NCBI GenBank assembly: GCA_040285855.1
Contig: JAUFOQ010000002.1
Location: 2,294,001-2,358,000, forward strand
Direction of reading: 5' to 3'
Source of the DNA: Eukaryota sp. GEM-RC1
Lineage: Eukaryota
DNA: 64,000 nt
Shown: positions 36,269 to 62,850 of the stretch, piece by piece
How the letters are laid out: each line of letters opens with the position of its first letter
Numbering within the stretch: the stretch's first letter is position 1
The notes under the pieces: generated by a model
Databases searched by the model: none
Told to the model about the DNA's origin: nothing
Seen by the model: the letters and a program-made list of their open reading frames with translations, nothing else
Translations under genes and position numbers: made by a program

Positions 36269-37225
36269 TTAATTTCTACGACCTCTTTTCCTAGGACCTC
36301 CTCTACCCTTACGGTTCTTCCTCAAAGCAGCCTTCTTTTCCTTTGCTTCTATATAAAACATAGCCTCATCAGCACCAGTTAAAACAACCAACTCAGGAGT
36401 CTGACCTCCAATCTTAATCGAATCTTCCTGTAACTTATCAGCTACCTTCTGAGCTACTTTCTCCTCTGCCACGTCACTGAATCTAATCTTTGCACTGGGT
36501 TCTCCCTGAGAATAGGCAACGTACCCAACGGTAGCAAAAGGAGACAGAAGTTCTGTGAGGATCTCCCGTGTGCAGGTAGCTGGAAGGTTCTTGATCTCTA
36601 GTAGACAACCTTCCACAAACTCAACACCTTCGTCCTCTTCCTCGTCTTCTAAAGACTTCTTGTCAGTCTTGGCATCTTGCTTGGCTTCCCTACGCTTGGA
36701 GGTGCGTTGTTCTCTTTGCTCAGCCTTGCGTTTGAAGTAGTCGGGAGCATACTCAGTTTTGGCTTCGAAATCAAGTTCTTGGTCTAGGAAAGACTTAGCC
36801 TCTTCAACGGTAGAGAACTCAACAATGGCGGAATCGTACTTTTGGGTATGGAAGTTACGGCGAAGTCTGACACATTGAATGGTTCCGTACTTTGACAGGA
36901 GTTCTTCGACTGATTCGATGGTACTGTCTTCAGGAACTGGCTTGACGCGGACAGATCGTTCTTCTGACGTGTCTTTTTCAGGGAGTGGAGCGACACGTCG
37001 GACTTTGGTTTTGTCTTCAGAAAGTGCAACAACAGTGGAGTCTTTGAGTTGTTCAGCTAATTCAGGAGTGGTGAGGTTGAAGCTCTTCATGCGGTTGAAG
37101 CTGTTGATGACATCAAGTGAAATCCAGCCTTCAGGGGTTTGTTTCGCAGTACTGAGAAGAAACTTGTCTTTAAGATAGTTGGAGTCACTAAAGTAGAACT
37201 CTACTTGTTGAAGGGCAGTTTTCAT
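36269..37225 (-). CDS. SSB: La autoantigen (La motif, RRM, xRRM)
   Basis: QVEFYFSDSNYLKDKFL, FNRMK, two RRM-like domains and a basic tail. Confidence 0.92.
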   Translation of the reverse strand: MKTALQQVEFYFSDSNYLKDKFLLSTAKQTPEGWISLDVINSFNRMKSFNLTTPELAEQLKDSTVVALSEDKTKVRRVAPLPEKDTSEERSVRVKPVPEDSTIESVEELLSKYGTIQCVRLRRNFHTQKYDSAIVEFSTVEEAKSFLDQELDFEAKTEYAPDYFKRKAEQREQRTSKRREAKQDAKTDKKSLEDEEEDEGVEFVEGCLLEIKNLPATCTREILTELLSPFATVGYVAYSQGEPSAKIRFSDVAEEKVAQKVADKLQEDSIKIGGQTPELVVLTGADEAMFYIEAKEKKAALRKNRKGRGGPRKRGRRN

Positions 37226-37513
37226 AGGAGAGAGGAAATTAAAAAAAAGACTCCTTGTTCCCTTTTCCACAGCTTTCCTATCATACATTCATACGAAACT
37301 ATTAATAGTAACCGCAGAATATCTTCGCTAAAAAATAAAAATCACTTGTAGAGACGAAAATGATTTACCTTCTAAGTATACGATTCTTTTGACAATACCA
37401 GGAATATGTAGTTTTTTTGTTCAAGTTCTATTTATTGACAACAACACTACGGTGTACGTACATCTAATAATCAATATCCTCAAAGTCCAAATTGTCTACT
37501 TGGACATTCTTAC

Positions 37514-38420
37514 CTACCATATCCTCATAATGGCTGTTAAGTGATAATAAAATTTCAGATCCAGAAGACACCATACCTTTAATGATAGCAAACGCAATTC
37601 GATTTTTCCAAAATCTAAGATCAAAAGTCCTAGATGTTTTTCTTTTACAATCTTCACAAAGAATTCAAGTAATGATGTTTTGGATTCACCTAAAGACCCG
37701 CACAGTGAAAGAACAAAAGGGTACAACAAAGAATTGGAGTGTGAAACCGAATTCAATTATTTCAGTTTATCACCAATTTTCCATTTTAAATTTTTCACTA
37801 ATCAACAGAGAATTTTAAACATAAGATGTAGATAGTTTCTTGTTAAAATCATTTCAAACATCGATAGACAGAACATCATCAATAATGAAAGATCCAACGA
37901 GACCAGGAAATATCACATCACCACGGCTATTTCCAAACGATTTGTCAACATCCGTATCATCAAACAAACCAGCCAGAACTGGTTTTAAAAGGAAACTATT
38001 CCATAAGATTTACACATATAATATAATTGATCCCTTACTGGGTCATGAACCCTACTTCTAAAAAGAAATAAGACGGTTACAATTCAATAACGGTTAAAAT
38101 CTTTATTTAAAGTGGTTTCGACTACAGAAATTTGTGAAACCAAGTGTTGAAAGACAGTCATCTTGATGATGTCTTGATTTAGATGGTTTAGCCTTATTTT
38201 TCATCAATTTCTGGACAAACGTGACTGTCGTACGGATATTTATTGACTATGGCACTGGTTTATAAACCGTGAAGACAGCTGTGCAATATTTTTCAAATCA
38301 GATGCCTCACTATCTACCAGCTTTTAAAATGGAACAAGATTCGTTGTCATTTTGGAGGTCCTCTGGTTTGTGGAATTGGAAATCATTGAAGAGATTCTTT
38401 TCAAAAGATCGAAGCAACTG
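37514..38420 (-). mobile_element. 3' remnant of an RLE-type (CRE-like) non-LTR retrotransposon
   Basis: RGDVIFPGLVGSFIIDDVLSID (restriction-like endonuclease core) and YPFVLSLCGSLGE; many stops. Confidence 0.6.
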
Positions 38421-38423
38421 TGG

Positions 38424-38577
38424 ACACGGGACCTTTTTCGAACACGGGGCAACATAGAACAAGACCCAAGTAAGAGCAGAAAGTCTCCTAAACAAGAGAC
38501 TTCTCTAAGAGGGGAGATTGTCTATGATTGCTCAGATAACTACGGATTCACGTAGTAAATAAAGGCTATGACTATGA
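38424..38577 (-). ncRNA. Candidate Fanzor omegaRNA scaffold (locus A)
   Basis: Immediately 3' of the Fanzor stop; hairpins actacg-tgaatc-cgtagt and aagtctctt-gttt-aggagactt; ends near aaaggtcccgtgt. Confidence 0.55.
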
Positions 38578-40724
38578 CTATGACAAATAACTGGGTCTAA
38601 CTCCTAGACCCCGCTCTAAATGATGCTCCACAATGGTCTTGATGTTGATACACGCTAACTTGTTACGATTCCAAACTTTGTCTTTGTCATCACATTCTTC
38701 TCTGCACTTCTCAGATTGACATCTCAACAACGCATGTAACTTCACCGTAGGCTTCTTTTCTTGTGTCTTGGGTCTAGGATTGTCAACTTCCATAAACACT
38801 TTAACTGGCCCCAAACAAGTAGGACACTTTGAAGATGTGTAACTCTCGTCTACCAAAACAATATTGTAACCATTTCTCCTAAAGAAGTTTCTCCACATCA
38901 CACCTCTACTTGATCGGAGATGTTTTAGGTTCTGCCTCTTATTACCATTGTCACCAAACATCAATACACAGTCATCTTTATTCCATCCTTTTGCAGTCAT
39001 ATTTTTCAACAACTTACTTTCTATTTTTTGAATATGGACGTATCTTTGCATTTTTGAATGCGCCATATCATCAAACAGTAGTAATCAAATGTTGATTCAA
39101 TAACTGTAAGTTTGGAACTCACATAGTCATAGAAGGTTTCATACACGGTCGACTTTGAATTTTCTTTGGACAATGTTGACTCTTCTTGTTCAACCGTTTT
39201 TTCATCTCGGAGAATAAATTCTTTTTTCTTTTCCCTTCTAAACTTTTGATGGACTCTGGACAATCTCGACCATTCTGTTTCTGTCAATCTTAGCCACTCG
39301 TATTCTTTGTTTCTCATTTCACGGGCTAAATTTTCAGGCTTTCTTATTTTTTCTGAACAGAAGTAGAGTAAATCCTTCTTGCCAGGATCAATGTACACTT
39401 TTGTTTTCAATGTAAACTCTTCAATATCATAGTCTTGAACATATTCATCAGTACTGGAGAACTTTTGTACTATCTGGTTTAAAGGACATTCCCACACAGT
39501 CCTCTCTAGTAAGTTCAATACAAACAGAGAAACCATCAGTTTTAATGGTATTGTTAAACTTATAACCTTTCTTTATAAATGGACGATTAAAATTGACAAA
39601 GTAAGACCAGAATTGATTTTGCTCAGCAGGAGACATGTGTCTAATTTCAGTTTGTGTATTCCACTCAGATCTGATTTTTTTCTCTTTAACCTGATGATTG
39701 GTTAATGTGGAACGTAATATTCCCCAAAGACCTTGTGTATCCACTTCAAAGAAGCCTGGAACCACGTGTCGAACAATCGGAATTATATTGTAAGTACTGG
39801 CTTCATCCTCTTCAAGAAAGTTATTTATCTGTATTGCTGATTTTAGAAAAGATTGTGGATGTTCATGTACCGCTTTAAGTAGAGAATCAATCTGTTTGTC
39901 TTCATAATCACCATTTGACTTTTGAATTTTAATTGATGGTGGGAAGAGGATATCAATGCAAACCTGATCTGAAAATAGTTCTAGAACAGTGTCGTGACTT
40001 TGAGCTAAAAGTTCAATTTTATCTTCTCTACTTAAGCTTTTTCATTGTCATCTTCAAGAATTATGGTATCACATTGTTCAATAAACTCTTGTATTTCTTC
40101 AGTAGTTTTTGGAATATCATTTCTATTCCTTTGAAGAAAAACATTTTTTATTTGTCTCAATCTCCAACGAAATACAGACTTTTCTTTTCTGGACATTTCT
40201 TCTTCAACACTATTTTTTTCAAACCAAACATTAATAAATTTGTCAATGTACTGCGGATATCGCATCTTAATGTTTGTGTTCAAATTTGTTTGTATTGTTT
40301 CACCAACCATTGCCATAAGTCGTGGAGAATGGTTAGCTGGAAATTGTGGAATACCACCATTGTCAATCATAACTTGTTTGTATTGATTTGTATCAAATTT
40401 TCTCAAGTCGTCATTAATTGTCGCATTTCCATTGTTTAGTTTAATCTTATGACGATCAGCAGAGATTTTTTTCAGCAACGTTTGAATGTGTTCAACCTCT
40501 TTCCTTGTAATTAATGGTAGTGGAAGCTCATTCTTATTTAAATACAATAAAAACAGCTTTAAACAATAAGAAGTGTGTATTCGTAGTTTATGAACCAATA
40601 GAGCATAAAAATTCAACAACAATTCCAGTCCTGTGTGTTTTGCAATAGACTTCAGTGTAGTCTTATGTGTGACAAAAGTGGAACGAACTATTTTATTTGA
40701 TTGAAATAATAAAAACAACTTCAA
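38578..40724 (-). CDS. Fanzor (TnpB-derived RNA-guided RuvC nuclease), C-terminal part of a polyprotein; three A-run frameshifts
   Basis: FVTHKTTLKSI N-terminus, FNNTIKTDGFSVC, RuvC-I IDPGKKDLL, VLMFGD, RuvC-II VDESYTSSKCPTC, zinc finger LLRCQSEKC, RuvC-III WNRN(D>N)KLACINI and RPSYL tail. Confidence 0.9.
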
Positions 40725-41440
40725 TGCTAGTACACTGTCTTTGAAACATTAGTTTAGAACTTCTTGAGGTCGTCTACTAACACAATCAATAGGCAATAAG
40801 TGTTCAAATTTGTCATGAAGACGTCCTTTAGATTCATTTAATAAAAACCAACTTAAAGATCTTAATGATCTTGAACATTTGATAGCAATAAATTGTTTAG
40901 CATAGAGGTAAGAATCACATACAGCTCTACCAGCCCATTCAGTACAAACACGTTGCCATAAAGGTGACAAATGTGATTTTGTGGTATCATCTAGCATTGG
41001 TTCTGGAAAGTCTATTCCAAAAGCATCAATTCTATTGTCTAGAACAACATTATGAAAATTAGTAATGTTAAATCCAGTCAAAACAGACGGATTTTTATCA
41101 GTCAAATAGTTGACAAAAAACTCTAGTAACTGTTTTTCATCTTCAAAGAAGAAAAGGCTATGGCAATCAGTTGGATTTTCAACCTCTGAAAAGACAGTTG
41201 ATTCTTCTGAAGTCGCAACAAAGCTTTCTTGGAGGTAAAACTCATCCTTAATAAAATGACCGAACACTCCAGAAATCATGAACACTTGTTGTTTTTCAAT
41301 CCAAGCATCTCTTTTTGAATCACTTTGATTTTTTTAAAACATCATTATGTTCTTGTCTTTGATCATTCAAATTCTTCGTAAGTTTCTCCGCAGGTAATTG
41401 ATCAACTTCTCTTGTTTCAATATCAAACGACAAAATTGAA
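40725..41440 (-). CDS. B-family DNA polymerase-type 3'-5' exonuclease domain, in frame with Fanzor
   Basis: ExoI SFDIET, EKQLLEFF, ExoII GFNITNFH, GRAVCDSY, SLRSLS and ExoIII VLN*CFKD (TAA where YCxxD has Tyr). No polymerase domain follows. Confidence 0.82.
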
Positions 41441-41877
41441 CAAGAGTTAGAGTCTTCTGGTAATTCGGAATTACAATGAAAGTCAATCATTTGTTTCTTA
41501 GGAGGTTTAAGACTCTTGGTAGCATGAGTTTTACCACTTGCTTTTGGTTTGGTTGTAGACTTTTTGGATTTGCCAACTTTTGTTGTACTCTTAGCTGGTG
41601 TCTTTGTGGTTTCGGTTTTCTCACAAGCAGCAACGTTTATTTTAGGAGTTGTCAAATTTATTGGAGCTAAAGTCTCTAACTTTGGACGAATCAAAGATTC
41701 CTGAAACAATTCTTCAGCTTCTTGAAGTGCTTGTTGTATCATGTGCAACTTCAAACGACGTCTCTTTTGTCGGTTAGACAAATCACCTGGTAAACTATTT
41801 AGAAATTCTTTATGAGTCACATTTGGAACCCCTATATCAGAATCACTGGGCTTACGTATAATCCTTTTTGACTTTTT

Positions 41878-42645
41878 TTAAGCAACTTTGTCAGTTTTTT
41901 TATATTTGCGTGTTCGCTTAATTTTGGTTTGTCCAGATATCCGGTTTCTACTTGTAGGAGGTTGTAGAGATTGAAGGTACACTTTTATTTCTTGTCTACT
42001 CTCCCTAGTATTGATAGGTTGTTGAATCATTCTATCAGCAGCATGGAGAAGAGATTGATCTGTGAATTGGTTTGAAGTCAGAAGTTCAATAAGTCCTCGC
42101 ATAAACTGAAGAACATATACTCCACAATCATTTGTTGTTTGTTTCTGTAGCACTGGAACAATAATGAGCTGAAACTGGAGTTGATGAAGAATTTCATGTA
42201 TTTTTGAAATATCTTGATTCAAATAAGAGTCAATTTCATTTAAATTTTTATCAACATCCTGTCTGTGAATTTCAGCATCATAAAGAGGATCGAGAAATAT
42301 CACTTGTAGATCATTTTTATCAATTACAATCAAACCCCAATGTAAACCAGTCATTGCATCATTTATTGGAAGAAAAAGATATCTAGAATCTGTCGCAAGC
42401 ATCTTGTTCATGAAAAACTCGTGGAGAGATTGAGTTTCATCAACTAAATATGATTGAATAGATTCAGGAGTTACAAAGGCATTGAAATCAATTTTGTATA
42501 CGTCCATCAAATGACGAGAGTACCAATTGACACATTCTTCTGCAATCGATTCTTCAGCTGACAACGATTTGATTGCTTCTGAAACCTCTTGTAATTGAGT
42601 TTTTGTCAGTTTGTTAGGATCTGGAATTTCATCAGTAGATGACAT
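41878..42645 (-). CDS. ULP1/SENP-like (C48) cysteine protease domain 2
   Basis: FLPIN...HWGLIVID...FLDPL...QTTNDCGVYVL (His, Asp, Gln and Cys all present). Confidence 0.88.
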   Translation of the reverse strand: MSSTDEIPDPNKLTKTQLQEVSEAIKSLSAEESIAEECVNWYSRHLMDVYKIDFNAFVTPESIQSYLVDETQSLHEFFMNKMLATDSRYLFLPINDAMTGLHWGLIVIDKNDLQVIFLDPLYDAEIHRQDVDKNLNEIDSYLNQDISKIHEILHQLQFQLIIVPVLQKQTTNDCGVYVLQFMRGLIELLTSNQFTDQSLLHAADRMIQQPINTRESRQEIKVYLQSLQPPTSRNRISGQTKIKRTRKYKKTDKVA

Positions 42646-42676: not shown

Positions 42677-43549
42677 TTAGCAGTCTTCTATCTTTTTTTT
42701 GGCCGGTTGTTTAGTTTTAGGACCTTTTTTCTTTCTTGCATCTGGTTTTTTGGGTTTATGACGTTGTTGAAAAGGTGTAGAATGAACTGAAAAGTATTTG
42801 TTTAAGATTTGTCTAGCACGTTCAGCCCTCTCTGCTGATTGAGTAGTCAAAATATGAGTCAAAACTTCTTTCCTCATTTTTAGAGCATCATAGTCTTGGC
42901 TTATTACGAGTCTGGTTAAAATTTCTTTAAAATCGATAGATGAACAATCGATAGATGAGTCTGTTAAGGTAACAAACTTTTTAATGTACATAAGAATAAA
43001 AGGTCCACAATCGTTTTCAGTTTGCTCTTGCTTTACAAATAGTTTATCCCGATACACAAATTTCGCATCATTAAACAAATTTAACTGTAACCGTTGGACA
43101 ACTTTTTAACTACGAGTTAACCGTTTTTGAGCCCGGAATTGTTCTAAGTCTTCTAAGTGTTGTTGCTCAGTAAACAGTGAGTCAATTGAATAAATCAGTC
43201 GGTCTTTAATATCACAAACTAGAATTGTCCAATGAGTTGGAATTCCACCAAAGAGACCATCATTTACTGGCATGAATATAAATCGTTTCGCAGGAACACC
43301 TTCTTTCATTGTTGTGATAAGATAATTGAATTTCCTTAGTAACAGCTGATAGTGGAAGACTGCTATTGCCCCAAGCATATCATTAATTGGGAAATATTGA
43401 CAACAATGACTACTTTGAGTAAGGAAATCACCGTATAAGCCAATTACATCATCATTAATCCATACTTTGGGCTTTAAAGTGTCGATGTTGTCCCAAGCAG
43501 GAGCAGGAACAGGTCTCAGTTGCTCATCTCTAAGGTCATCTGTAAGAGA
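42677..43549 (-). CDS. ULP1/SENP-like (C48) cysteine protease domain 1 (one in-frame TAA at 43106)
   Basis: WINDDVI, FMPVN..HWTILVCD..IDSL and QTENDCGPFIL. Confidence 0.88.
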
Positions 43550-43594
43550 AGGTCCTGGATTGGACTCTATGTCTCCATCCGTGGTTAAATCATG
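43550..43594 (-). other. 2A-like ribosome-skipping (StopGo) peptide HDLTTDGDIESNPG/P
   Basis: Exact match to the D(V/I)ExNPGP consensus with a typical upstream DLT..GD context. Confidence 0.9.
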
Positions 43595-43642: not shown

Positions 43643-43883
43643 GTGATAGTGCGAGTAACTTAATCCTGTTACTATCACCCGAAACACCTTGTGGTGTTTG
43701 AGTACAGAGAATCCTAATGAATTAGAAGAAAAACATACAGAGTGATAGTGCAAGTAACTTAATCCTGTTACTATCACCCGAAACACTTTGCAGTGTTTGG
43801 AGAGCATCAAATAAGAAGAAAAAGGTGATAGTGCGAGTAACTGAATCCTGTTACCATCACCCGAAACACTTTGCAGTGTTTGG
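43643..43883 (-). repeat. Three copies of an about 58-nt two-hairpin RNA-like element in the polyprotein 5' region
   Basis: Copies at 43643-43700, 43742-43800 and 43825-43883; compensatory base changes in the stems. Confidence 0.85.
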
Positions 43884-43929
43884 AAGCGAAAAAGGGAATG
43901 AAAAAGATACAGGTCAAAAAGATTTCAAC

Positions 43930-44097: not shown

Positions 44098-44200
44098 TCA
44101 ACATTTGTAATGACAATACTTGTAGATACAACATTTGTTATGACAATATTGGTAGATACAACATTTGTAATGACAATATTTGTAGATACAACATTTGTAG
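44098..44200. repeat. 30-bp tandem repeat (about 3.5 copies; caacatttgtaatgacaatatttgtagata)
   Basis: Directly visible in the sequence. Confidence 0.9.
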
Positions 44201-44213
44201 GGATAGACTATAT

Positions 44214-44671
44214 CAGTGTTTGAAAACCACCCGGGTGGAAATGAAAACCACCCGGGTGGCACTCGGTTCCACCCACCACCCGGGTGGCGTCTGGGTGGTA
44301 CTGGGTGGATAATTTTGGTCATACCATCATCTTCAATCCATGACTTCCTGAATACATACTTCGATGTTCAACGTGTCCTGAATACAATTATTTTAACGGG
44401 AGTTATTTCTAGGCTCGGATAGGCTAATATCATCTTATTTATTTATTTTTCAGAGGGTTGTTTTAATCCCAACCCTGTACAAAGTTCTTCATTGTTAGTT
44501 ATTTTATATCACACACTGCTAAAGTACTTTAATTTTCATCGTATATGGTGTATAAAGTAGTTTTTGCACCAAAACTTATGTCTCGTTCTTTAATGCCGGT
44601 GGAAATGAAAACCACCCGGACGCCACCCGGTTCCACCCACCACCCGGGTGGCGTCCGGGTGGAAAATTTTC
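44214..44671. mobile_element. hAT-type MITE (458 bp) with palindromic ccacccgggtgg subterminal repeats
   Basis: Perfect 8-bp TSD gactatat (44206-44213 and 44672-44679); left end cagtgtttgaaaa; right TIR truncated to ttttc. Confidence 0.75.
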
Positions 44672-44887: not shown

Positions 44888-45131
44888 ATGCAGATCTTCG
44901 TTAAAACTCTCACCGGCAAAACCATCAATCATCAATGTTAAAGTCGAAGGAGCTACTGATACCATTGAATCGGTCAAGGAAAAAATCCAAGATCAGGAAG
45001 GAATCCCACCTAGACAGCAAGTGTTGAGCTTTGAGGATCAGAAACTTGAAGATGATCGTACTCTACAGGACTACAACATTCAGGAAGAGTCTACCCTTTT
45101 TCTTGTCCTCCGTCTCCGAGGTCGTATCTAA
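44888..45131 (+). pseudogene. Divergent ubiquitin-like gene disrupted by a 7-bp duplication
   Basis: [13 protein letters not shown]...EGIPP...[22 protein letters not shown]; catcaat duplicated at 44923-44936; no C-terminal GG. Confidence 0.85.
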
Positions 45132-45316: not shown

Positions 45317-46367
45317 ATGCTTACTGAAAAGAAGTCCGCAATCTTACTCGTCGTCTTGCTGATACTGAAAAGCCTATCCGTGACGCTGCTTTCGATGAGC
45401 TTAAGTCAGTACTTGCTCATGAAGATCTCACTGATATCGACTTGAAACGAGTTTCATTAGGTCTTTTTTATGATATCTGGCACTCAGACAAACCCCTAGT
45501 CCAGAACAGTCTCTGTGAATCAATTGCATCCTTTGTAACATCCCTACAACCATCAAAGTCCAACAAGTTCTTCTCTGTCTTTCTTCCCATTCTTGGTAAG
45601 GAATGGGGTGGTATTGATCAGTACCGTTTAGACAAGTACATGTATCTCATTAGACTTTTCATTCGGGGAGCATTAGAACAGTCTATTGTTTCTGATGATA
45701 CTGCTGAACTCTTTGGAGAGACTCTAACCGCCCTACTGTCGGATGAATCTGTCATTCCGTTTGGTTTTCAATGTCATGTTTGCGATGTATTTCCAGAAGA
45801 AGTTGAGACAGTATTCAAGACGTCTCCAAATCCCAACACGTGTCTTCCTTTCCTCTACTGTTTTGTTATCTGTCTGTCAAAGTGTAAGAACAAGTTGCTT
45901 CGAACCGAGTATGGACAGTGTTTGAATGGTGTTGTATCGTTTTTATTTAACTTAATGGATGAAGAGGAAGCAAATGAAGAAGCTGTTGTGTTATCAATGT
46001 CTTTGTCTGAAATTCTGTTTTATTACGCATCATCAGTAACTGAAGTTGTTGGTCCTGCTAGAAAGATCATGTATGACGTTGCAGATCGCATTGGTAAGAA
46101 ACTTGACATTCCCTTAGGATCTCTTTCAAAGCTTGATGGAAATGCCAACGGAGAAGAGGAGGAGGAAGAACCTTTTCCGAAGGCGAGCTAAGTGGTAGTG
46201 ACAGTGATGAAGAAGAGAGTCAGGATGAAGGCAGTCAAGATGATGAAGGGGAAGAGGAAAGCAGTTCTGAAGAGGAGGGATCGTTGTTACTTCTAGCAAA
46301 TGTAGAGAAACTAAGGAGGACTAGTACAAAGTCATCGAATATACCTAAAAAGAAGCGAAAGCAATAA
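45317..46367 (+). CDS. RRP1: rRNA processing protein RRP1/NOP52 (indels near both ends)
   Basis: GLFYDIWHSDKPLVQ and EWGGIDQYRLDKYMYLIR; acidic/basic tail. Confidence 0.88.
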
Positions 46368-52297: not shown

Positions 52298-52470
52298 TTT
52301 AAGTTTTGGTTGTTTTACTTATTTGTGTGTGTTTATAAAGTTAGTTCTGTCAGATTGAAGATGATTGTACTGGACAGTATAGTATATATCTTATTTTTGT
52401 TAGAGCTCTAAAGCAAAATATGTATAATTAGATTATGCTGCTGAATGAAGAATTATTAGATTCATTAATA

Positions 52471-55178
52471 CTCTAAAACATCTAATACAACGCCACCCCC
52501 AAACCCCGAAAATTAGGGGGTGGCGCTCTATTAGATTTATGATCTGTCTGCTGACTTCTGGGATTTTTGACCGTCGGTTTGAAATTTCTGAATTCGTCTT
52601 GACAAGTCAAATTCTTTTTGCTCTTTTGCTCCAGTCAATCTTTTTAATGACCCTGATTTATGACCTACCTTTTCTCCTCTCTCATGTCCTTCTTGTTCTA
52701 GCGTATATCTCGCCATTGTGATTCACGATCTGCTTATGCTTATGTACCATAATAAACAACAATCTTTTCTGAACCTTTTCTTTCTGTTGTGTCTGACGAG
52801 TCTCAACTAAACAGCCCTCAAGTTGATGAACCACTTGAATATCTATCTCCTGGATTGGCTGGAATTCCCTGGAGCAAAGGTAGTAAAGGTTGGTTTATCA
52901 TATTCTCTTTATAACCGGCCCCAAACTAGATTGGGGACGATGTTCCTAAGGATCAGTTGTGTTCATGTTCCAAACTGTTGTCTTACATAATTCTTTCTTG
53001 TTTTAGCTCTTTCCTTATCTTTATGATGGGCAAAAGCTCAGACCAACAGATTTCGCTGTTTCGGTCTTTAGTCTATTCATCTCTTCTCTGGTTTGCAGTC
53101 TGTTGGATGATGTTTAGTCTGTTGTTCTTCATAAAGGATTATTGGCCCAAATAGTGTCTAGAAAACACAATGTTTAAGGAAATGATACTGTTTAGCAGCT
53201 GTATCGAGATATGGGGAACGATATTGCTTGTATTGGCGATATGTATCCGACAACCATCAAGTATCACAATAGATCTACAACCGCAATTGGTCAGTTTGGT
53301 ACATTGTACTGTCTACAAACACATCATTAGCTTCTTGTGATGATAATGAGTAACCTCAGTCTGATTTCATTATCATGTTTTGTGTTGCTATGCAAAAATG
53401 CAGTCAAAAACGACTGAAGACACAGCAGTGCATTACACGATCAGAGTTGTAGCAAACCAGCAGAGTTGTAGCAAACCTTAGTGTTTTCCTTTGGAGGATA
53501 AGATGTCAATGTGATGTATGTGTAGTAGGATGGTTGTACAACGTTGAGTTTATTCATGACATGGTTGAACACGGTTCACAATTCTAAGAACGAATACCTG
53601 CAAACACGTCTCTATCTTGAAACAAGCTCAACAATTGATACCAAAAGATGTATGGAATCCATCAAAGAAGGTATAAGTGTATCAGTTTGGGGATATGTGG
53701 TTATGGGGTGAAGAGTATTTGGGGTAAAATGATTTTGGGGAGTATCAACAGAATGATGCGCCCCAAATGAATTCCCCCAGTATTATCGCTAGCAACAGTT
53801 CATTGATTTCGGTTCAAGTACATGTGGAGTTTTGGAGTTTGATAAGAAAATGTTGTCAAATGTGACGTTTGACACATAGGATGAACAGATTTCATCGGAA
53901 TCAGATGTTATGAAAGCCTTTTACAGTATAGAGAGACATTGTTGTATGATCATGATGTATAAAACAACATTATTTATAAGACTGGCTAAATATGGGTTCT
54001 TTGAATCACGTTATCAACATATAATTCGACAGTGACGTGCATATACAATAGTACTTGTAGTACTTTTCATGAGTAACAACTGTAGTGTTGATAAGAGTGA
54101 ACGGATAATCAGATCTGAAAAATCTTCTACTGACAATTTCTCACTCTGACTTTCAGAGATGAGTTTCTGAACGTTTTGATTCTGTCTACCTTCTCCAGAA
54201 TGATGACCCTATAGATGTTCACTCTGAATCAAGCATCGTTATTATACCAGTACTTATGATTTCATTTTCATTATCATGTCCTATGAATGCGTTGTACTAC
54301 TACAAGTAGAACCACAAGGAGCTACAGTTGTACGAGTAGCACTATTGCGACTATGAACCTCTTAGGAAACAACCTATCTTTTTCATAAATCACAATGTAG
54401 TGTACCGATTTATATGTTAATCTTGGAGCTTCTTATACACTGGAATCATGATAACCTTTTATAGTATAGAGAGACATTGTTGTAGGATCACGAGTAAAAA
54501 CCGAGTCTATACTTGAGCAGGCACATAACAATTCTTTATAGAAATATACTACAGAAATAAACTGTTCATCGTACAGGAAAAAAATCGATCTCTTGCTGAA
54601 TGAATCCTAGAGACCTAGAGTCACAAAACAGGAGTTCGCTTCAAGTGCATCTTCAGTGAAAGAAAAGGCTGACTTTTGCACAAAGGTAAAGATCTGATAG
54701 AAGCAGGTCCGTTATCGAAGAATCAGTGTCAAGTATGTTGACTTCTCTCTTTTGACTAGTGGAGAGAGTCAATCTAGAGAGACTGGAAGATAACATTGAG
54801 AAAGAATGGTAGGATTCGGGAGATCCTCTTGGGAAACTAAAGAAGAACGCAGTGACACAAAGCTGCCGTACAACGAGAAGACTTTCTGAAAAGTTACCAA
54901 TACACCATAATCTTCCGAAGTACATCAGCCTAAGAAGACATGATGATGTACGAAATGAGGAGGAGATGAAGGGGAGGAGTGGTAGGTCAAAAATGCAAGA
55001 GAAGGATGTGGACGGTCAAAAATGTAGACGTGAAGGTCATAAAGAATTCAAATTTGAAAATTCACTGGGTCAAAAACACATGAAATTTTAGAGAAATATT
55101 GCAAATATTTTTGACCGAAGGGGGTGGCCTTCTGTTAGATGTGGATTTTGGGGTGGCGTTGTATTAGATGTTTTAGAG
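52471..55178. mobile_element. Non-autonomous pogo/Tc1-mariner-like element (about 2.7 kb)
   Basis: Perfect 29-bp TIR ctctaaaacatctaatacaacgccacccc (52471-52499 / 55150-55178), TA on both flanks, inner ggggtggc repeats and no transposase ORF. Confidence 0.85.
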
Positions 55179-55208
55179 TACTGTTTGAGTACTTCTTAAT
55201 TAAAATTA

Positions 55209-55990
55209 TTGTTAGTCGATATTTCAGTTTCTGATTCTGGTGTTAAACAAGGAGATCTTCTTGGCCCCTTCTTTGTTTGTTTGGCTATTCATCCCACCCT
55301 GAAAAAACTCAAAAAAGGACATGCAGACTTAGAAATTGTAGCTTATATGGATGGCATTTCTTTTATTGTTCCTATGTCAACTCTTCGTACTAATGCGAAT
55401 CACGCTGCTGATTTGCACGATGCAATTGGACTTCATTTAAATGTGCAAAAATGTTTTTTGATTGCCAAGGTACCTGTAACTTTAATTGTAAATTCTTTAG
55501 AGGTTCCCTTTGTGAACTACTTGTCTTCAAGCTTTAGATTTCTAGGTTGCTATCCTGGTTCACATGAAAACATTGTTAAAAATCTGAAAGTATATTCGGA
55601 TTCAAAAGCTCTATTTGCTCTCAGTGTTTTTTATGAAGAAAAAGGTTATGTAAGTTAAAATGGCAATGATTGTTGCTTTAATGATATTGAGTTCTAGTAT
55701 TTTTGTTTATCTTAGTGTTTTTGTTCCATAAATTACTCGTGGAAAAAAAACATGTTTTAGTTAATCTTCCACAGATGCTAACAACGTTTGGTGAAAGATG
55801 TTCTTTTTTATCAAGATTATATAAAAATCAAGATTGCGGATGTTCATTTTCTGCTAGAGATTGTCAGTGCACCACGGTTTTCCCATCATGGATCCTGTAA
55901 TCTGTTACTTATATCATCATCTTAGTTTTGGCGATTTTCAACTGTTATCATAAATTTGACAAACACTTAAATATTTGTAGTTTTGTCAGA
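55209..55990 (+). mobile_element. Non-LTR retrotransposon RT fragment
   Basis: SGVKQGDLLGPFF, AYMDG (YxDD decayed), GLHLNVQKC and FRFLG. Confidence 0.8.
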
Positions 55991-56633: not shown

Positions 56634-58465
56634 CTAACGTTCAGGTCTTCTGAACGCTTCAGGTCTAATCCCGAAGAAGAATTCGCTGATTGCGATCTCT
56701 AGTTGGTTTCGAGATGCTGAGATGTCTCGCGACCATTCTTGCAAACAAAGAGGACATGTGAACTTGGAATTGTTCACTCTCCTCTCGCCATTCACCATGT
56801 GATACAATTTTTGGTGGACAACCTTACAGCAGTTCACCTTTTTTGAAGTATAAAACTCGTCTCCCATCACCACATTGTGCGATCTTTGTAGATAAGTCAA
56901 GAATCGCTTTCTAGGCGCTTTGACCTTTTGTCTTGATGGTCCATCTCCGCCTTTGCCAAACCAGATGCTAATTGTCCGGCCATCAGCTATAGTATTGATT
57001 ATCTGGTGTAATAAATCGAATCTTTTTTGTCGTCTTATATAGAAGTCGAAATTATTTCGTCGTAAAGATCGTCTGTTTCCTTCAATAAACCGTCTTTGTA
57101 GTATAGTTTTGCTCATCTGGGCATCCACAACGTGAGAAGCTAATTCGATGAGATACAGTTTAAAGTTCTCAACGATACAAGTATTCGCTGTTGTGTGAGT
57201 GAGAGCAGGGGCATGGTTAATTTTTTTCGGTTTTGGGGACAAACAAATCCCAGAGGCTTCAACTGGGCCATTAAGTGAACCCACCGACCAACCACACAGA
57301 TTGCTGTGGTTGGGGTCAATAGCCCAAAATAAAACACTTTCATCCAGAAGTGGTAGTACTTCAGACACCTCAGATTTCTTCTTCTTCTTAGGAGGAGGAC
57401 GGACAACCTTACTTTGAAGGTTCTTCTTCCTTTTTCTTGTCTTTGAAGGCCGTTGAGCAGGTTTCTCCACCAGCTCCAACTCGGCCTTTGTTCGCCTCTT
57501 TTAGTCTTTTTTAGGCTTCATTGAGAAAGTGAATCTCAATGAGACTCCATCAGAGGAAATTGTATAAGTCTCAAATTTCTTCTTTCTAAAAACATCATGC
57601 GGATTTTTTAATAAAACCTTTCGAGTATTATAATTTTGGAAATGTTTTTGAGTAGCCTGGCTGAAGGGAAGAAAGCCAGGTGAATAAGATGCCATGGGCG
57701 TAAGAGCCTGCCGACGCATTCTGGTGGGTTCAACCCTCTCCAAGTGGAGGAGAAGATTAAATGGAACTTCAAAGATGAAGTTGACATTGGACGGAGTTAA
57801 GTCAGTCATTGGAGTGGTCAAAAGGGCATCCACTCGTTCTGGGTCCATAACTTGATTGTTGAAGATGTCAACAATCTGGTGGTGCCAAGTGGTCCACCAA
57901 GGAAGAAGAGATTGCGGTGGCTCAGAGCCACGTAGAACAAGAGAAGCGTACTGCTTTGGAGAGGGACAAAGACAGTAGGTAGCTGTGGTTCGAAAGAAGT
58001 TAAGCTTCCAACTAACCAAGCCATCCGTCATCAGCTGCTGAAAGGCAGCTGCAAGCTGAAGTGCTCTTGCACTAAATAGGTCCGAGTATGCCCAGTTGAT
58101 GGGACACCTCCGTTCCTTGCATGGGGGTTTGTCCCGGCCAATAGGAGGGAACGGCCAGCCTGGACGGTCTGTAGAATTTAAAAGAGCATTGAACACCTCA
58201 GTGTGCTCACAAAAGGTTCCCGTACTGGCATCGTCGGGGAGGACGGATCCAGACAAACAAAGTCAAAACACTGGTACCAGTACTGCTGTTCAGTCAGCCA
58301 GTACGCCAAGTGTTTGTGCTGGAGCACGAACAGTCGAGCAAGGAGGGTGCTCTGGACAGCAACTGTTCTGACGTGGCGGAACTGCCGCTCCATGGCTTTT
58401 TGAGCTGGCACTCCGAAGAAACGGGAAATAGATGACGCGACAGTGGTTTTTTTGTCGACAGTCAT
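56634..58465 (-). CDS. Fanzor nuclease B (one frameshift near 58255, one in-frame TAA at 57501)
   Basis: TISSDGVSL, RuvC-I WAIDPN, WFG, RuvC-II GDEFYTSKKVNCC, zinc finger CPLC, RuvC-III WSRDISASRN and RPEAF tail; D-E-D triad intact. Confidence 0.88.
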
Positions 58466-58773
58466 CAAAGTTAAATAATTGAAGAATTTGATGTATTTTA
58501 TGTAACCTCTATCACAATCGTTTGTTCTATAGTGTATTTGTAAATTACCATCTGTGGACACCAGTTGCTGAGTAGTTGAGATGGTTTTTAATTGCTATGG
58601 TATGTCTTCCATGATCTCTCTTGATGAAGTTAAGAGAACCAAAAGTTCTTGTCTTGATTCATACATGTACTGCTACCTGTTGAACTTTGTTTCTGCATTT
58701 ATGTAAAATTAATTTCAAGTGATCTTAAGCTTATGACAGTCATAATATCTGATATTAGTCAGTGACTGTGAGT

Positions 58774-61221
58774 TAGTGTTGCACGAGACGTGTAATTTAC
58801 TGGCCGAGACGCGTCTCGGAGACGTGCGTCTCCTGAGACGTTTCCGAGACGTGTTTTTTGGTGTTTACATCTTTTTACTTTCCACACAACATCTCCCTCC
58901 TCTTTTCTCCCATTTATATGACTGCACCAGGCATCAACTTAAGAGATTTTGTAACAGTTATTGTTGACGTTGAATCTGATGAAGCAGCAACTCGTCCTAC
59001 GTCTCCAAGTGGTCGTCTCAAAGATCCACAGGTCCGTTGTAACTCATGCCATCATATCTTTTCTGAATCCACTTCGCGGTTGAAAGCTCACTTCCATATT
59101 TCTGGAAGTGGAGTCAAATTATGCACAGCACTGCCTCCTGAACTTTCCGAAAGACAACGTTTAGCTTTATCGCAATCAACCCCACCAAAGAAAAAAGACC
59201 GCCAAACAAGCCTTTTTGAAAATTGGGACTCTCAAAGCAAAAAGTTCCTAGACCTGGTGATAGCCAATTTCTTCTATCGTCATGGCATTTCCTTTAATGT
59301 GGCTCGGTCTCCCGAGTTTGTCGATATGGTAAGCGCTTTGGTCTCATACAACTCTAAAATATCGTATACTCCTCCTTCTTACAATTCTCTTCGCACCTCA
59401 CTCTTGTCTGAGGTGAAGAATGTTATCAACTCTCGATTATCTACTTTTTTTCGAAATATAAGAACCACTGGATGTACAGTAGTTCTTGACTGCTGGAAAG
59501 ATGTCAGAGGGCGATCCCTAGTTAATTTCTTGTTCGTTTCCCCTGATGGAGCCGTTTTCGAGAAGGCTGTTAATTTACATGGCAAATCTAAAACTGCCCT
59601 TCTAATAGAACAGGAACTTTCGAAGGTGATCCGAGACCGAGGTTCCGACAACTTCACTCAAATAGTCAGTGATAGGGGTTCAGAAATGAATGGATGTCAA
59701 CGCGTCATATCTAAGTTCCAGGCGATCACTTGGACTCCCTGTTACTCGCATACGCTTGACCTTTTCTTGGAAGATTTGGATGATTTGGATATTATCGCTG
59801 ACGTCAATGAAATTACAGGAAAAATTGTCAGTTTCATTAAAAACCAAGAACAAGTTAATGCAATTTTTTTACGGTTATCTGATGGCTGTGAACTACTTAA
59901 ACCCACAATGACCCGGTTCGCCACCAATTTTATTCAACTTGGAAGGTTGCTGAAAGTGAAACAGGCTGTCAGGATGTTGTTGATCAATGGTGATTATGAG
60001 CGTTGGAAAAATCGTCAAAAGACTCGCAAAAAGAAAGACCATATTGCATTGTTCGAAAGTTTTATCACTGATGGTCGCTTTTGGGACCAAGCAAAAGAAA
60101 TACACGATTTTTGTTTGCCTTTTGTTGAACTTCTAAACGAAGTTAATTCGGACACCCCTGTAATGGGTTCTATGTTTCGTCGTTTTACAGAGACATACAA
60201 GAAGATTTTCTCCACTGAGCTGCAATTTCTTGAACAATATAGAATAACCATAGCGGAATTATTTCTCGATCGGTGGAACATTGTCAAGAACCATCTGCAT
60301 TTCTCTGCCCATTTACTGGACCCCAAAAATCAAGACTTCGATCCACTAAATGAAGATATGCAATCGCTGAGAAATTCTGTCGTTACAACATTAAAGAAGC
60401 TTTTATCTCCCGAAGACGCAAAGGCTGCTTTCAAGCAATTATGCCATTATCGAACAAAGAAAGGAAGTTTTGCTGATCCGCTAGTCTGGGAAGCTGCTGT
60501 AACAATGGAGGGAAATGAATGGTGGGATGTGTTTGGCGGTGATACACCTCAGTTAACCAAAGTTGCTATCAAGGTCTTAAGCTGTGTAGTTACAGCAGCT
60601 GCAAGTGAGAGATGTTGGAGTGTTTACTCCTATATTATCAACCGGAGAAGGAATCGAATGACACCAGAGAGACAAAATGATCTTGTATATGTCTTCATGA
60701 ATCTTCAACTGCTGAAGAAACAAAGATCCTTTGCCGTGAACTACTATACGGAAGATTATCCCCAACTTAGTAACTTGCTGTCTAATATTGTGGAGGAGGA
60801 GGATCAAGAATGTCTTATGAGAGAAGCTATAGACGAGATAGTGGAAGAAATGGAAGAAGAAGACATTGTTGTTATTGAAGACCAAGACAATGACCTAGCC
60901 GTTAGTGAAAACGGAAGTGGTGGTGAACAAATGGTATTTGACCCTCTTCTTGAAGGTCTTGAAATGCAATTCTAAATTTATTTGTCTGTAATGCATCCAA
61001 AGGTGCTCATCCACCGTTTTGTTAGTTTTTAATTCAGTTTTTGATGAGTTTCTGAATAAATCTATTTGTTTTAACTTGTACTGATGTCATTATTACGTTT
61101 GTTAAAACAGGTATCAATGTTAGAAGACAGAGACGGGGAGACGTCTCTGAGACGTAATGTTGTAGAGACGGGAGACGGAGACGCGGACGTCTCGGGAGAC
61201 AAGAGACGTCTCGTGCAACAC
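58774..61221 (+). mobile_element. Autonomous-looking hAT DNA transposon
   Basis: 15-bp TIR gtgttgcacgagacg (58776-58790) / cgtctcgtgcaacac (61207-61221); many gagacg subterminal repeats at both ends. Confidence 0.92.
58918..60975 (+). CDS. hAT transposase (BED finger, DUF659-type DDE core, dimerisation domain)
   Basis: CNSC..H BED finger, LDCWKD, VSDRGS, CYSH, TRF, WWDVFG...AASERCWS; uninterrupted ORF. Confidence 0.95.
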   Translation: MTAPGINLRDFVTVIVDVESDEAATRPTSPSGRLKDPQVRCNSCHHIFSESTSRLKAHFHISGSGVKLCTALPPELSERQRLALSQSTPPKKKDRQTSLFENWDSQSKKFLDLVIANFFYRHGISFNVARSPEFVDMVSALVSYNSKISYTPPSYNSLRTSLLSEVKNVINSRLSTFFRNIRTTGCTVVLDCWKDVRGRSLVNFLFVSPDGAVFEKAVNLHGKSKTALLIEQELSKVIRDRGSDNFTQIVSDRGSEMNGCQRVISKFQAITWTPCYSHTLDLFLEDLDDLDIIADVNEITGKIVSFIKNQEQVNAIFLRLSDGCELLKPTMTRFATNFIQLGRLLKVKQAVRMLLINGDYERWKNRQKTRKKKDHIALFESFITDGRFWDQAKEIHDFCLPFVELLNEVNSDTPVMGSMFRRFTETYKKIFSTELQFLEQYRITIAELFLDRWNIVKNHLHFSAHLLDPKNQDFDPLNEDMQSLRNSVVTTLKKLLSPEDAKAAFKQLCHYRTKKGSFADPLVWEAAVTMEGNEWWDVFGGDTPQLTKVAIKVLSCVVTAAASERCWSVYSYIINRRRNRMTPERQNDLVYVFMNLQLLKKQRSFAVNYYTEDYPQLSNLLSNIVEEEDQECLMREAIDEIVEEMEEEDIVVIEDQDNDLAVSENGSGGEQMVFDPLLEGLEMQF

Positions 61222-62850
61222 ATAATATGACTTCTATAACAAAAAAGAATGGCAAGCTTTGACTGTTTATCTCTTTCTTCCAACACTTATATATCCCAAA
61301 TTTATCACCATCACTAAACAATCTTCACAAGAACTGCCCGCAACAACACAGGTCTTCAATTGTTGTCAGATTGGCTTGCTGCCACCTCTCCCTTAATAAT
61401 CCTTCTTCCGCACAACATGTACTGGATCCGTTACTTCGGTGATTTGTTGTGAATACCAGATCCATAGGACTTCATCCCATCAGTTCTCTGGTCTTTGATC
61501 ATGACGAATTCCTCGACGGACAAGAGGACGTACTGATCCATGAAGAAGAAGAGGAGCTCCTTGACAGTGTTCTAAAGTTGTCCCTTGTTGATGGTCTTGA
61601 AATGGAAGACCTTCTTATGAACATCTCCCCCTGATGATGTCTGTAACTGCTGGTTTTGAAGTTGTAGCCTTTCCCCGTTCCTATATTGGTGCTTTCAGGT
61701 CCGTCCTTGACCTTTCTCGCTCTTATATCGCCCTCTCCGTTAACACTAGTTCTCTCCTTCTCTCATCCATCCATTTAGCAGATATGTGAGAGATTATTGG
61801 TATTTGCTGATGATTGAGTGTTTAGCAATATTTTTCCTCAATCCCACCACTTAAATTTGGACGAAGATTACCCGTAGTGGTACATCCGTGCCATCTTCAA
61901 TTCATCACAATAGTCATAGTTTGTTGGTTTATTTATCATAAAAAGCTAGTTACCAAACCAGTAGTATCTCCCTCTACTCGTCAATAATATTTGATTGTTT
62001 TGATTGATTGGCGAGTGAAGAAAGATTTTATATAAAATAACTTGGTCACTTCTCGGTTGTTTCAATGTTAGTTATTGAACAACTTATGTTTATTTCTAAA
62101 AAAAAAATTAAGATTATATTCAAGCAATATCTTCAAAAATAACTGGAATGACTCGACAAACACATGATATACATCATAGAGGCTCTGGAAATACTCTAGA
62201 GAAACACTGGACTCAAAATCTCGTTTAATTCTCTTGTTTAATTAATTCTGTCAAGAGATTCCTGTGGAGTCACATCAAGGAATATAATGCTGTTTCTCTT
62301 TCTCATAAAATTAGCCATGTTGTTAAACAAGCGGAGATAGGTTTCGCAGCCATGTTATTCCAAGAGTCCTGAGTCTGAGAGCATTTTGGCAAAGACGGAG
62401 TCCTTATAGATTGTTCAGTCTCTAATGGAACCACTGATGGAGCCGAAAGATGCCGAACTGAACGCCAGAAGTGGTCATGGCGAATAAAAATCTGTTGAAT
62501 CATGTTTCTCGCCTTCTTTCGCAAAACTATGAAAAGAAGAATCAGAGATTCACGAAAAGTTCAGACGTGAAAGTAAGATAAGAACTTCACCGGATCAGAT
62601 ACGCCTTTATTGAGATGAACAGCAGAGTATGTTCTACGAAAAGGATTGAGACCGTCAGGTTCTAGATGAATGTTCCGTGTATGATATAGACATAACAGCA
62701 AAACCATAAGAGAGGATGAAAAACTGAAAAACAGAACGGGGAAAATAAATGTTGGGGAAAAGATAAATGGGAGGTTCTTGTACTAGTACTACTAGTAGTA
62801 GTTTAATCCAAAACGAAATCCCCAGTAGATTCTTCCCCTTACATATTATT

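Follow-up and report, generated by a model that had tools for sequence, protein, structure and literature searches.

The minus strand of a 64,000-nucleotide stretch of the Eukaryota sp. GEM-RC1 genome (contig JAUFOQ010000002.1, positions 2,294,001 to 2,358,000; called the window and numbered from its first letter) carries one broken reading frame of ~1,700 codons between ~43,600 and 38,578. This frame comprises a 2A motif of the ribosome-skipping type, two Ulp1 protease domains, a basic linker, a 3'-5' exonuclease of the family-B DNA polymerase (PolB) proofreading type and a Fanzor1 nuclease. Judged from its sequence, the locus is a dead member of a mobile-element family that is present in many copies and encodes the single polyprotein 2A-(Ulp1)0-2-PolB exonuclease-Fanzor1. 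The joined exonuclease (Exo) and Fanzor1, here named Exo-Fanzor, constitute an apparently undescribed Fanzor1 clade that is lineage-specific, prolific and old, and in which the PolB proofreading domain is conserved in its catalytic residues. The exonuclease and Fanzor1 features of the window copy are the following.

40700-41430 (-): PolB-type 3'-5' proofreading exonuclease (PF03104, E 7.6e-15, and motif coordinates)
41413-41430 (-): ExoI motif SFDIET, in a different frame from ExoII and ExoIII
41052-41075 (-): ExoII motif GFNITNFH, Asp replaced by His
40737-40751 (-): ExoIII motif (TAA)CFKD, the Tyr codon being a TAA stop
38578-40699 (-): Fanzor1 (PF07282, E 1.6e-4), stop codon at 38578-38580
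39381-39395 (-): RuvC-I motif YIDPG
38833-38853 (-): RuvC-II motif VDESYTS, followed by a zinc finger (VDESYTSSKCPTC)
38653-38673 (-): RuvC-III motif WNRN
38440-38620 (-): predicted position of the omegaRNA and right end, derived from Fanzor1 biology as described in PMC10432273; hairpins predicted, not significant

A Proofreading Exonuclease Joined Directly to Fanzor1

The open reading frame (ORF) 40749-41333 matched the profile PF03104 (DNA_pol_B_exo1) with an E-value of 7.6e-15 and 55.4 bits at a cut-off of 23, which is far beyond chance. All three Exo motifs, which an earlier note on this DNA had reported to occur in order, were located on the minus strand. Past the single TAA in ExoIII the frame runs on for 238 codons. 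Alignments of stand-alone Fanzor1 proteins begin at residues 212-222 of the read-through frame (~40,700), that is, 13-23 codons beyond the ExoIII Asp at residue 199. No match to the polymerase profile PF00136 was obtained in any scanned ORF of the element or any scanned intact relative. Thus, the description of Fanzor as starting about 15 codons after ExoIII, in the place of the missing polymerase, holds. The earlier note had named two observations that would speak against this picture, a missing exonuclease profile match and intact copies with a polymerase between Exo and Fanzor; PF03104 matched, and no such copy was found. The proposed assignment to the replicative PolB proofreading type agrees with profile, structure-profile and fold comparisons. 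The term "stand-alone" had to be given up because the exonuclease belongs to a polyprotein frame beginning with 2A and two Ulp1 domains, and forms the middle domain of 2A-(Ulp1)0-2-Exo-Fanzor. The Exo-Fanzor protein is not a family-B DNA polymerase or a Polinton.

Lesions of the Element

The window copy is a pseudogene since ExoI lies in another frame, the ExoII Asp is a His and the ExoIII Tyr is a TAA codon. Three in-frame TAA stops were found, at 43106-43108 in the first Ulp1 domain, at 41878-41880 in the linker and at 40749 in place of the ExoIII Tyr. Five frameshifts were located near 42,680, 41,330, 40,040, 39,460 and 39,052, four of them at or beside A-runs. A long-read error is possible for some of these frameshifts. 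The three stops and the Asp to His exchange in ExoII are substitutions. The frameshift near 39,052, which precedes RuvC-II, is common to the 96% identical related protein P0106, whose annotation ends in the same shifted tail; either the lesion was inherited or a homopolymer error occurred repeatedly. The window copy cannot make the protein, unless part of its lesions stem from the assembly. A non-standard genetic code for the TAA stops was ruled out: host ORFs of 400-850 aa are open in the standard code, and relatives possess the ExoIII Tyr. The related protein P0037, 92% identical to the window copy, reads YCFKD straight across the position of the window's ExoIII stop.

Related Proteins

HMMER matches of the read-through protein among 1.84 billion searched representatives included stand-alone Fanzors of 600-780 aa. 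The 3,559 candidates of the read-through search contained four longer proteins with an intact fusion (P0002-P0005), all from Eukaryota sp. TZLM3-RCL. The clusters had 132 members (108 from TZLM3-RCL, 22 from GEM-RC1 and 2 from TZLM1-RC), of which 110 were listed; many are fragments. Pieces of Exo-Fanzor were detected in two related organisms besides TZLM3-RCL. In 18 of 167 proteins a single ORF contains the complete set of three Exo and three RuvC motifs; these 18 fall into five families of TZLM3-RCL. They are complete, intact single-ORF fusions of Exo to Fanzor1 that lack a polymerase. Naturally intact proteins include KAL0213088.1, KAL0220299.1 and KAL0227605.1. Within each family the copies share 92.8-99.0% identity in their last 900 aa. 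P0108 (1,846 aa) and P0118 (1,905 aa) contain 2A, two Ulp1 domains, linker, Exo and Fanzor and are collinear with the window copy. In P0062 most of the Exo domain is apparently deleted. P0007 (KAL0221217.1) is annotated with a DEAH-type helicase N-terminal to linker, Exo and Fanzor and is probably a 5'-truncated copy which the annotation merged with a host gene.

No Exo-Fanzor fusion was found outside the three organisms by HMMER, cluster look-ups and contig scans of limited sensitivity. Pattern scans with the fusion alignment, of low sensitivity, yielded no relative among 211 matched metagenome-contig stretches or 98 viral-contig stretches, and a tblastn search of phages with P0003, also of low sensitivity, gave no match. 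A genome paper (10.1101/2023.05.03.539051) names Skoliomonas litria, sp. RCL and sp. GEMRC as free-living metamonads; in our reading the record names correspond to these Skoliomonas-type protists.

Signature Residues of Fanzor1

By sequence and by modelled fold the C-terminal part of the protein is a Fanzor1. The RuvC-I Asp was found in 21 of the 22 Exo-Fanzor rows with a residue at this position, and one GEM-RC1 family shows DIG. A RuvC-II Glu six residues before a CxxC zinc finger is described as a hallmark of Fanzor1 (PMC10711439). This arrangement is present in the window (VDESYTSSKCPTC), and the Glu was found in 15 of 15 rows. The acidic residue of the RuvC-III RD motif is absent: the window and all family proteins with the motif (43/43) carry Asn, compared with Asp in 24 of 25 other Fanzors. 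GtFz1 with the same Asn is active, and the SpuFz1 variant D606N is more active than the wild type (PMC11423790). Therefore, the RuvC-III Asn is a documented variant within Fanzor1 and no ground for exclusion, and the interpretation as a dead Fanzor was dropped. By analogy with GtFz1 the Fanzor nuclease of the family is probably live. At the expected omegaRNA position Rfam gave no relevant match, and the fold z-score for 38250-38620 was -0.87.

Fold Comparison and Candidate Donors

An AlphaFold model of P0003, computed from a 64-row alignment, reached a predicted local distance difference test score (pLDDT) of 85.7 and a predicted template modelling score of 0.71. The top seven Foldseek matches of this model were PpFz, SpuFz and GtFz structures (E 6.5e-28 to 3e-17), followed by Pol delta. 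The Exo domain was modelled with a pLDDT of 90.1. It superimposed on replicative PolB exonucleases with Z-scores of 12.4-16.6 and root-mean-square deviations (rmsd) of 3.2-4.0 over 171-196 residues. Pol alpha scored highest (Z 16.6, rmsd 3.4, 188 aligned residues), followed by Pol epsilon (16.3), Pyrococcus (15.5), and African swine fever virus (ASFV) and Pol delta (both 15.1). Lower scores were obtained for ExoI (11.4), DnaQ (10.6) and phi29 (8.6). The family Exo domains contain a helical insertion of 30-45 residues after ExoI, and the segment corresponding to the Pol delta beta-hairpin has a reduced length and is mostly coil and helix in the model. A two-chain complex prediction of Exo and Fanzor scored 0.02, gave no answer and is not used as evidence.

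The locus might in principle be the deleted remnant of a Polinton or endogenous virus whose polymerase was lost in the window copy. PolB exonucleases, proteases and Fanzors all occur in large DNA viruses, and viral PolBs are among the fold matches. However, the same direct Exo-Fanzor junction is found in 18 intact proteins, the protein-primed phi29 enzyme scores far below the replicative PolBs, and the neighbouring genes La, Nop52 and TRIP13-like belong to the host. Features of a Polinton/Maverick or endogenous virus, namely a protein-primed PolB, integrase, capsid or ATPase genes and long terminal inverted repeats, were not seen at the locus, where host genes flank the element and no long inverted repeat surrounds it. 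This explanation is largely refuted, and we give it a very remote chance.

Several PolB groups come into question as donor of the exonuclease. Profile scores against solved structures were 46.9 bits for Pol delta, 43.2 for herpes simplex virus (HSV), 39.8 for both RB69 and Pol alpha and 35 for Pol epsilon. The best full-length matches in the large libraries were of the archaeal type (P0059, Aenigmatarchaeota; P0114, Woesearchaeota), with one Pol delta-like and one giant-virus-like protein close behind, and viral PolB folds matched the domain at 11-23% identity. In a donor tree the Exo-Fanzor clade stood on a very long stem outside Pol delta and the nucleocytoplasmic large DNA viruses, with long-branch warnings. 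This tree contained no Pol alpha, epsilon, zeta, herpes or Polinton sequences, and 5 of 31 intended rows (P0111, P0099, P0115, L002, L021) were dropped since the motif cut failed. Pol delta, alpha, epsilon, archaeal and viral PolBs are thus nearly tied as candidates. For the capture from a host or DNA-virus polymerase inferred in the earlier note, the comparisons do not separate these two donors, and archaeal PolBs compete almost equally. The nearest Fanzor clusters by features are mostly Nucleocytoviricota (whole-protein score 0.76, a lead only). On account of this lead, an origin of the fusion in a virus is a plausible possibility.

A Single Fusion with Conserved Catalytic Acids

In a tree of the Fanzor part (35 rows) 10 Exo-Fanzors were separated from 25 Exo-less environmental Fanzors by a branch with a Shimodaira-Hasegawa-like approximate likelihood ratio test (SH-aLRT) value of 100. 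The tree of the Exo part, which is the donor tree described above (26 rows), placed 8 Exo-Fanzors on one side of a branch and 18 PolBs on the other, again with an SH-aLRT of 100. According to both domain trees the Exo-Fanzor fusion has one origin. The phylogeny of the Exo domain that had been called for thus unites the Exo-Fanzors in one clade; with its poor sampling it does not pin down a donor.

The Exo domains of family representatives share 25-49% identity. Among 50 full Exo domains, many of them near-copies, the catalytic acids were retained in 49 (ExoI Asp), 48 (ExoI Glu), 50 (ExoII Asp) and 49 (ExoIII Asp) cases, the two misses at Asp positions being gaps. Such deep divergence of families with near-invariant catalytic acids indicates long selection for catalysis, and judging from these residues the exonuclease is likely active.

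Alternatively, the domain could be an inert or merely DNA-binding passenger. It would have arisen when a Fanzor element landed in a PolB gene, for example of a giant virus, just behind the exonuclease. The junction at the end of the ExoIII helix, the feature-based proximity to giant-virus Fanzors, the gain, loss and exchange of other cargo (Ulp1, leaders) and the apparent deletion of most of Exo in P0062 are in line with this idea. Against it, lineages with no more than 25-49% identity retain the four acidic residues, and Exo is found in all seven 2A-bearing families, in which the number of Ulp1 domains varies from 0 to 2. Moreover, such an origin could hold even if Exo is now functional. Cargo status of the exonuclease is therefore quite unlikely.

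Models for the Function of the Tethered Exonuclease

With a probability of about 0.5, and by analogy with characterised systems, we propose that the exonuclease removes the 3' tail which the guided cut would leave, allowing host repair to copy the element back. SpuFz1 and GtFz1 cut 14-21 nt from the target-adjacent motif (TAM), and cutting by TnpB enables an element to copy itself back through homologous recombination; the same paper calls the role of Fanzor unknown (PMC10432273). In yeast, the proofreading activity of Pol delta shortens invading 3' ends by as much as ~40 nt and is able to remove a tail without homology (PMC9477423). The Exo-less elements CRe-1, CRe-2 and CRe-3 show 7-19-bp duplications, fixed 3' ends and variable 5' ends (PMC3627910).

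In the proposed sequence of events, release of the variable leader by 2A would give the protein a fixed Pro as its first residue. The cut would be directed by a right-flank guide to a site 14-21 nt from the TAM at the empty allele, as in Fanzor1 biology. The filled donor would hold the element between the TAM and the right flank. The TAM-side 3' end would then carry a right-flank tail of ~14-17 nt, unpaired at the left junction of the donor, whose removal would be needed before synthesis. The PolB exonuclease tethered to Fanzor would trim this tail in place, and host repair would copy the element into the cut site. The model predicts Exo-Fanzor insertions with short or absent duplications, untrimmed tails appearing as duplications.

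Several points weigh against this proposal. No omegaRNA, TAM, element end, terminal inverted repeat (TIR), target-site duplication (TSD) or transposase was identified for the window copy, and the guide and tail-geometry steps therefore rest on analogy. Direct matches of at least 10 nt numbered 4 compared with 2.7 expected, which for this one decayed copy gives no convincing TIR or TSD. Likewise, no transposase, terminal repeats or TSD were found for Helitron2, Mariner, MuDR, hAT, Sola or IS4 in this single decayed copy with unmapped ends. The intact proteins come from gene predictions, so that lesions could be concealed in predicted introns, and both domain trees are quick trees with long branches and SH-aLRT as the only support measure. 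The benefit of a tethered exonuclease is not obvious because the host's own Pol delta and Rad1-Rad10/XPF might suffice to take off the tail. In a single-strand-annealing assay, the correction pattern stayed the same when Pol delta proofreading was lost (PMC10868807), and engineered exonuclease fusions lowered editing by MmeFz2 (PMC12923547).

Alternatively, the cut could be destructive, the exonuclease chewing the ends against re-ligation, as TREX2 does in engineered Cas9 fusions, and thereby causing deletions or the loss of empty alleles, rival elements or invading viral DNA. SpuFz1 leaves 5' overhangs (PMC10432273), which a 3'-5' exonuclease would enlarge; homologous repair requires resection in the opposite sense. 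The conservation of the catalytic residues fits a destructive role equally, and engineered Cas-exonuclease fusions are reported to raise editing or deletion size. However, larger deletions at host sites bring no clear gain to a selfish element, no guide sequences pointing to foreign DNA were seen, and exonuclease fusions impaired MmeFz2 (PMC12923547). We consider this role doubtful.

The substrate might also be RNA, the exonuclease trimming the 3' (guide) end of an omegaRNA read through from the right end. The DEDD-fold RNases RNase T, REXO2 and ERI1 are structural neighbours at Z 9-10, the 30-45-residue helical insertion after ExoI could retune the substrate, and the guide is the 3' end of the omegaRNA, of which ~15 bp are protected by the protein (PMC11423790). 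DNA-polymerase exonucleases at Z 12.4-16.6 score well above these RNases, and Fanzor1 proteins lacking Exo need no such domain for the maturation of their RNA, even in yeast (PMC10432273). An RNA substrate is thus unlikely.

Tail trimming for host repair could be extended to a transposase-free eukaryotic element which spreads with a single machine of its own, by an RNA-guided cut and tethered 3'-5' trimming followed by host-mediated strand invasion that copies from the 3' end, while 2A would separate the protein from an acquired leader. This extension is speculative.

2A Motif, Ulp1 Domains and Leader

The N-terminal part of the window copy shows the following features.

43643-43702, 43742-43801 and 43825-43884 (-): three 60-nt two-hairpin repeats in the 5' leader (repeat and fold inspection)
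43550-43591 (-): 2A (StopGo) motif DLTTDGDIESNPGP (motif match)
42960-43549 (-): first Ulp1/C48 protease domain, lower bound approximate (PF02902, E 1.8e-4 and 0.021 for two halves)
43220-43237 and 43001-43018 (-): His motif and Cys motif of the first Ulp1 domain, which aligns to the N-terminal region of P0108 and P0118
42058-42426 (-): second Ulp1/C48 protease domain (PF02902, E 1.7e-15), His motif at 42328-42345, Cys motif at 42118-42135
41431-42057 (-): basic low-complexity linker, a stretch of which is partly conserved (26-29% identity to the linkers of P0002, P0012 and P0108)

The pattern D[VI]E.NPGP did not occur in 200 shuffled windows. A 2A motif was found upstream of Exo in seven related families, and 33 relatives that have an Exo domain contain the motif or a close variant of it, His replacing Glu in some. 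Among these 33 proteins from seven Exo families the Ulp1 count was 0, 1 or 2, unlike Exo, which is present in all seven. Leaders and Ulp1 types were swapped across Exo-Fanzor families around 2A (P0012, P0109, P0111, P0112, P0124): one leader was paired with two Exo families and one Ulp1 type likewise with two. These swaps suggest recombination between elements. We infer that Ulp1 is optional cargo of the Exo-Fanzor polyprotein. By analogy with non-LTR (long terminal repeat) elements (PMC3708506) 2A probably detaches the variable leader.

Tandem repeats translated upstream of 2A also occur in the relatives P0024, P0104 and P0018. Each 60-nt repeat of the window leader folds into a pair of neighbouring hairpins. 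Visual inspection suggests that, on the opposite strand, the bulge of one hairpin could pair with the other hairpin's loop. Rfam gave no match in the repeat stretch at E<=1. Identity of the repeats with hammerhead or hepatitis delta virus ribozymes was rejected, as the core motifs were not seen by eye and no Rfam match was obtained.

Neighbouring Genes and Elements

A profile scan of the window identified the ORFs flanking the element as ordinary eukaryotic host genes (La, Nop52, TRIP13-like). The element occupies a gap of ~8 kb between the divergently oriented La (36269-37288, minus strand) and Nop52 genes (45328-46191, plus strand). A further La-domain ORF lies at 62767-63699 on the plus strand.

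Upstream of the polyprotein two stretches are candidates for the left end or for small separate elements. Positions 44099-44298 and 44598-44662 hold a short tandem array with a period of 15/30 nt and two 65-nt GC-rich copies built on the palindrome CCACCCGGGTGG. At 44888-45131 (plus strand), just upstream of the Ulp1-bearing element, a frameshifted ubiquitin gene was found (PF00240, E 1.9e-20), which ends in LRLRGRI instead of GG and may be cargo.

Further away, an element of 2.7 kb with 38-bp inverted repeats (95%) and no long ORF extends from 52469 to 55180, directly followed by a reverse-transcriptase fragment at 55200-55655 (PF00078, E 1.6e-6). A second, unrelated Fanzor without Exo is located at 56640-58600 on the minus strand (PF07282, E 4e-7; triad DPN, E, WSRD) and contains an in-frame stop and a frameshift. 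Head-to-head with it, an open 712-aa hAT transposase frame (DUF659, hAT dimerisation, weak zf-BED) lies at 58837-60972 on the plus strand. This second Fanzor is possibly hAT-carried.

Discussion

Exo-Fanzor resembles SpuFz1, PpFz1 and GtFz1 (PDB 8gkh, 9ceu, 9cf0, 9cer; PMC10432273, PMC11423790) in its fold, with a TM-score of 0.80 on the SpuFz1 length. It shares with Fanzor1 proteins the DPG of RuvC-I and the relocated RuvC-II Glu before the zinc finger, and its D-E-N triad is that of GtFz1. In contrast to these three proteins, the family has a PolB exonuclease of ~245 aa at the N-terminus and 2A with zero to two Ulp1 domains upstream, and no inverted repeats like those of Spu-1 were found at the window element. 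The exonuclease has the ExoI D-x-E, ExoII N-xxx-FD and ExoIII Y-xxx-D motifs of replicative family-B proofreading domains (Pol delta, alpha, epsilon, archaeal PolB, HSV, ASFV, RB69). It differs from these enzymes by the lack of a polymerase domain, by 13-23% identity in structural alignments and by the helical insertion after ExoI.

Among known elements, MCi-2 of Mucor and CRe-1/2/3 of Chlamydomonas (Helitron2) are TIR-less Fanzor1 elements with variable 5' ends (PMC3627910). Like the present family they occur in many copies, in which the 3' part is constant and the 5' part has been exchanged or truncated. Unlike Exo-Fanzor they are not described there as exonuclease-fused; the main text contains neither "exonuclease" nor "polymerase". 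The non-LTR retrotransposons L1Tc, Ingi and CR1/L2 also carry D(V/I)ExNPGP near the polyprotein N-terminus (PMC3708506). In contrast to them, the present element has no apurinic endonuclease or reverse transcriptase, and its 2A precedes Ulp1, Exo and Fanzor.

The view of Exo-Fanzor as a natural analogue of engineered Cas-exonuclease fusions stands only as far as architecture is concerned. TREX2-Cas9, T5-Cas12f and the TREX1, TREX2 and T5 fusions of MmeFz2 (PMC12923547) also tether an RNA-guided-type nuclease to an exonuclease. The engineered fusions impaired MmeFz2, a Fanzor2 (PMC12923547), whereas Exo-Fanzor is natural, long conserved and built with a PolB proofreading domain.

No description of an Exo-Fanzor fusion was found in the papers searched; supplementary tables of Fanzor surveys, Repbase and subscription papers could hold one. 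The main texts of PMC3627910, PMC10711439, PMC10432273, PMC10530073 and PMC10691335 do not contain the word "exonuclease". Two 2A surveys do not contain Fanzor, the word "Fanzor" occurs 0 times in the genome paper 10.1101/2023.05.03.539051, and the available text of PMC6338049 and PMC10288648 mentions Fanzor only in general terms.

The retention of Exo-Fanzor through deep divergence, in more than 100 annotated copies or fragments, points to the fate of the DNA ends after the Fanzor cut. The family provides natural intact nuclease-exonuclease proteins of 940-1,200 aa, in contrast to the engineered Fanzor2-exonuclease fusions, in which activity was lost. It also brings a 2A peptide into a putative DNA element that has no reverse transcriptase. 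[quoted passage not shown]

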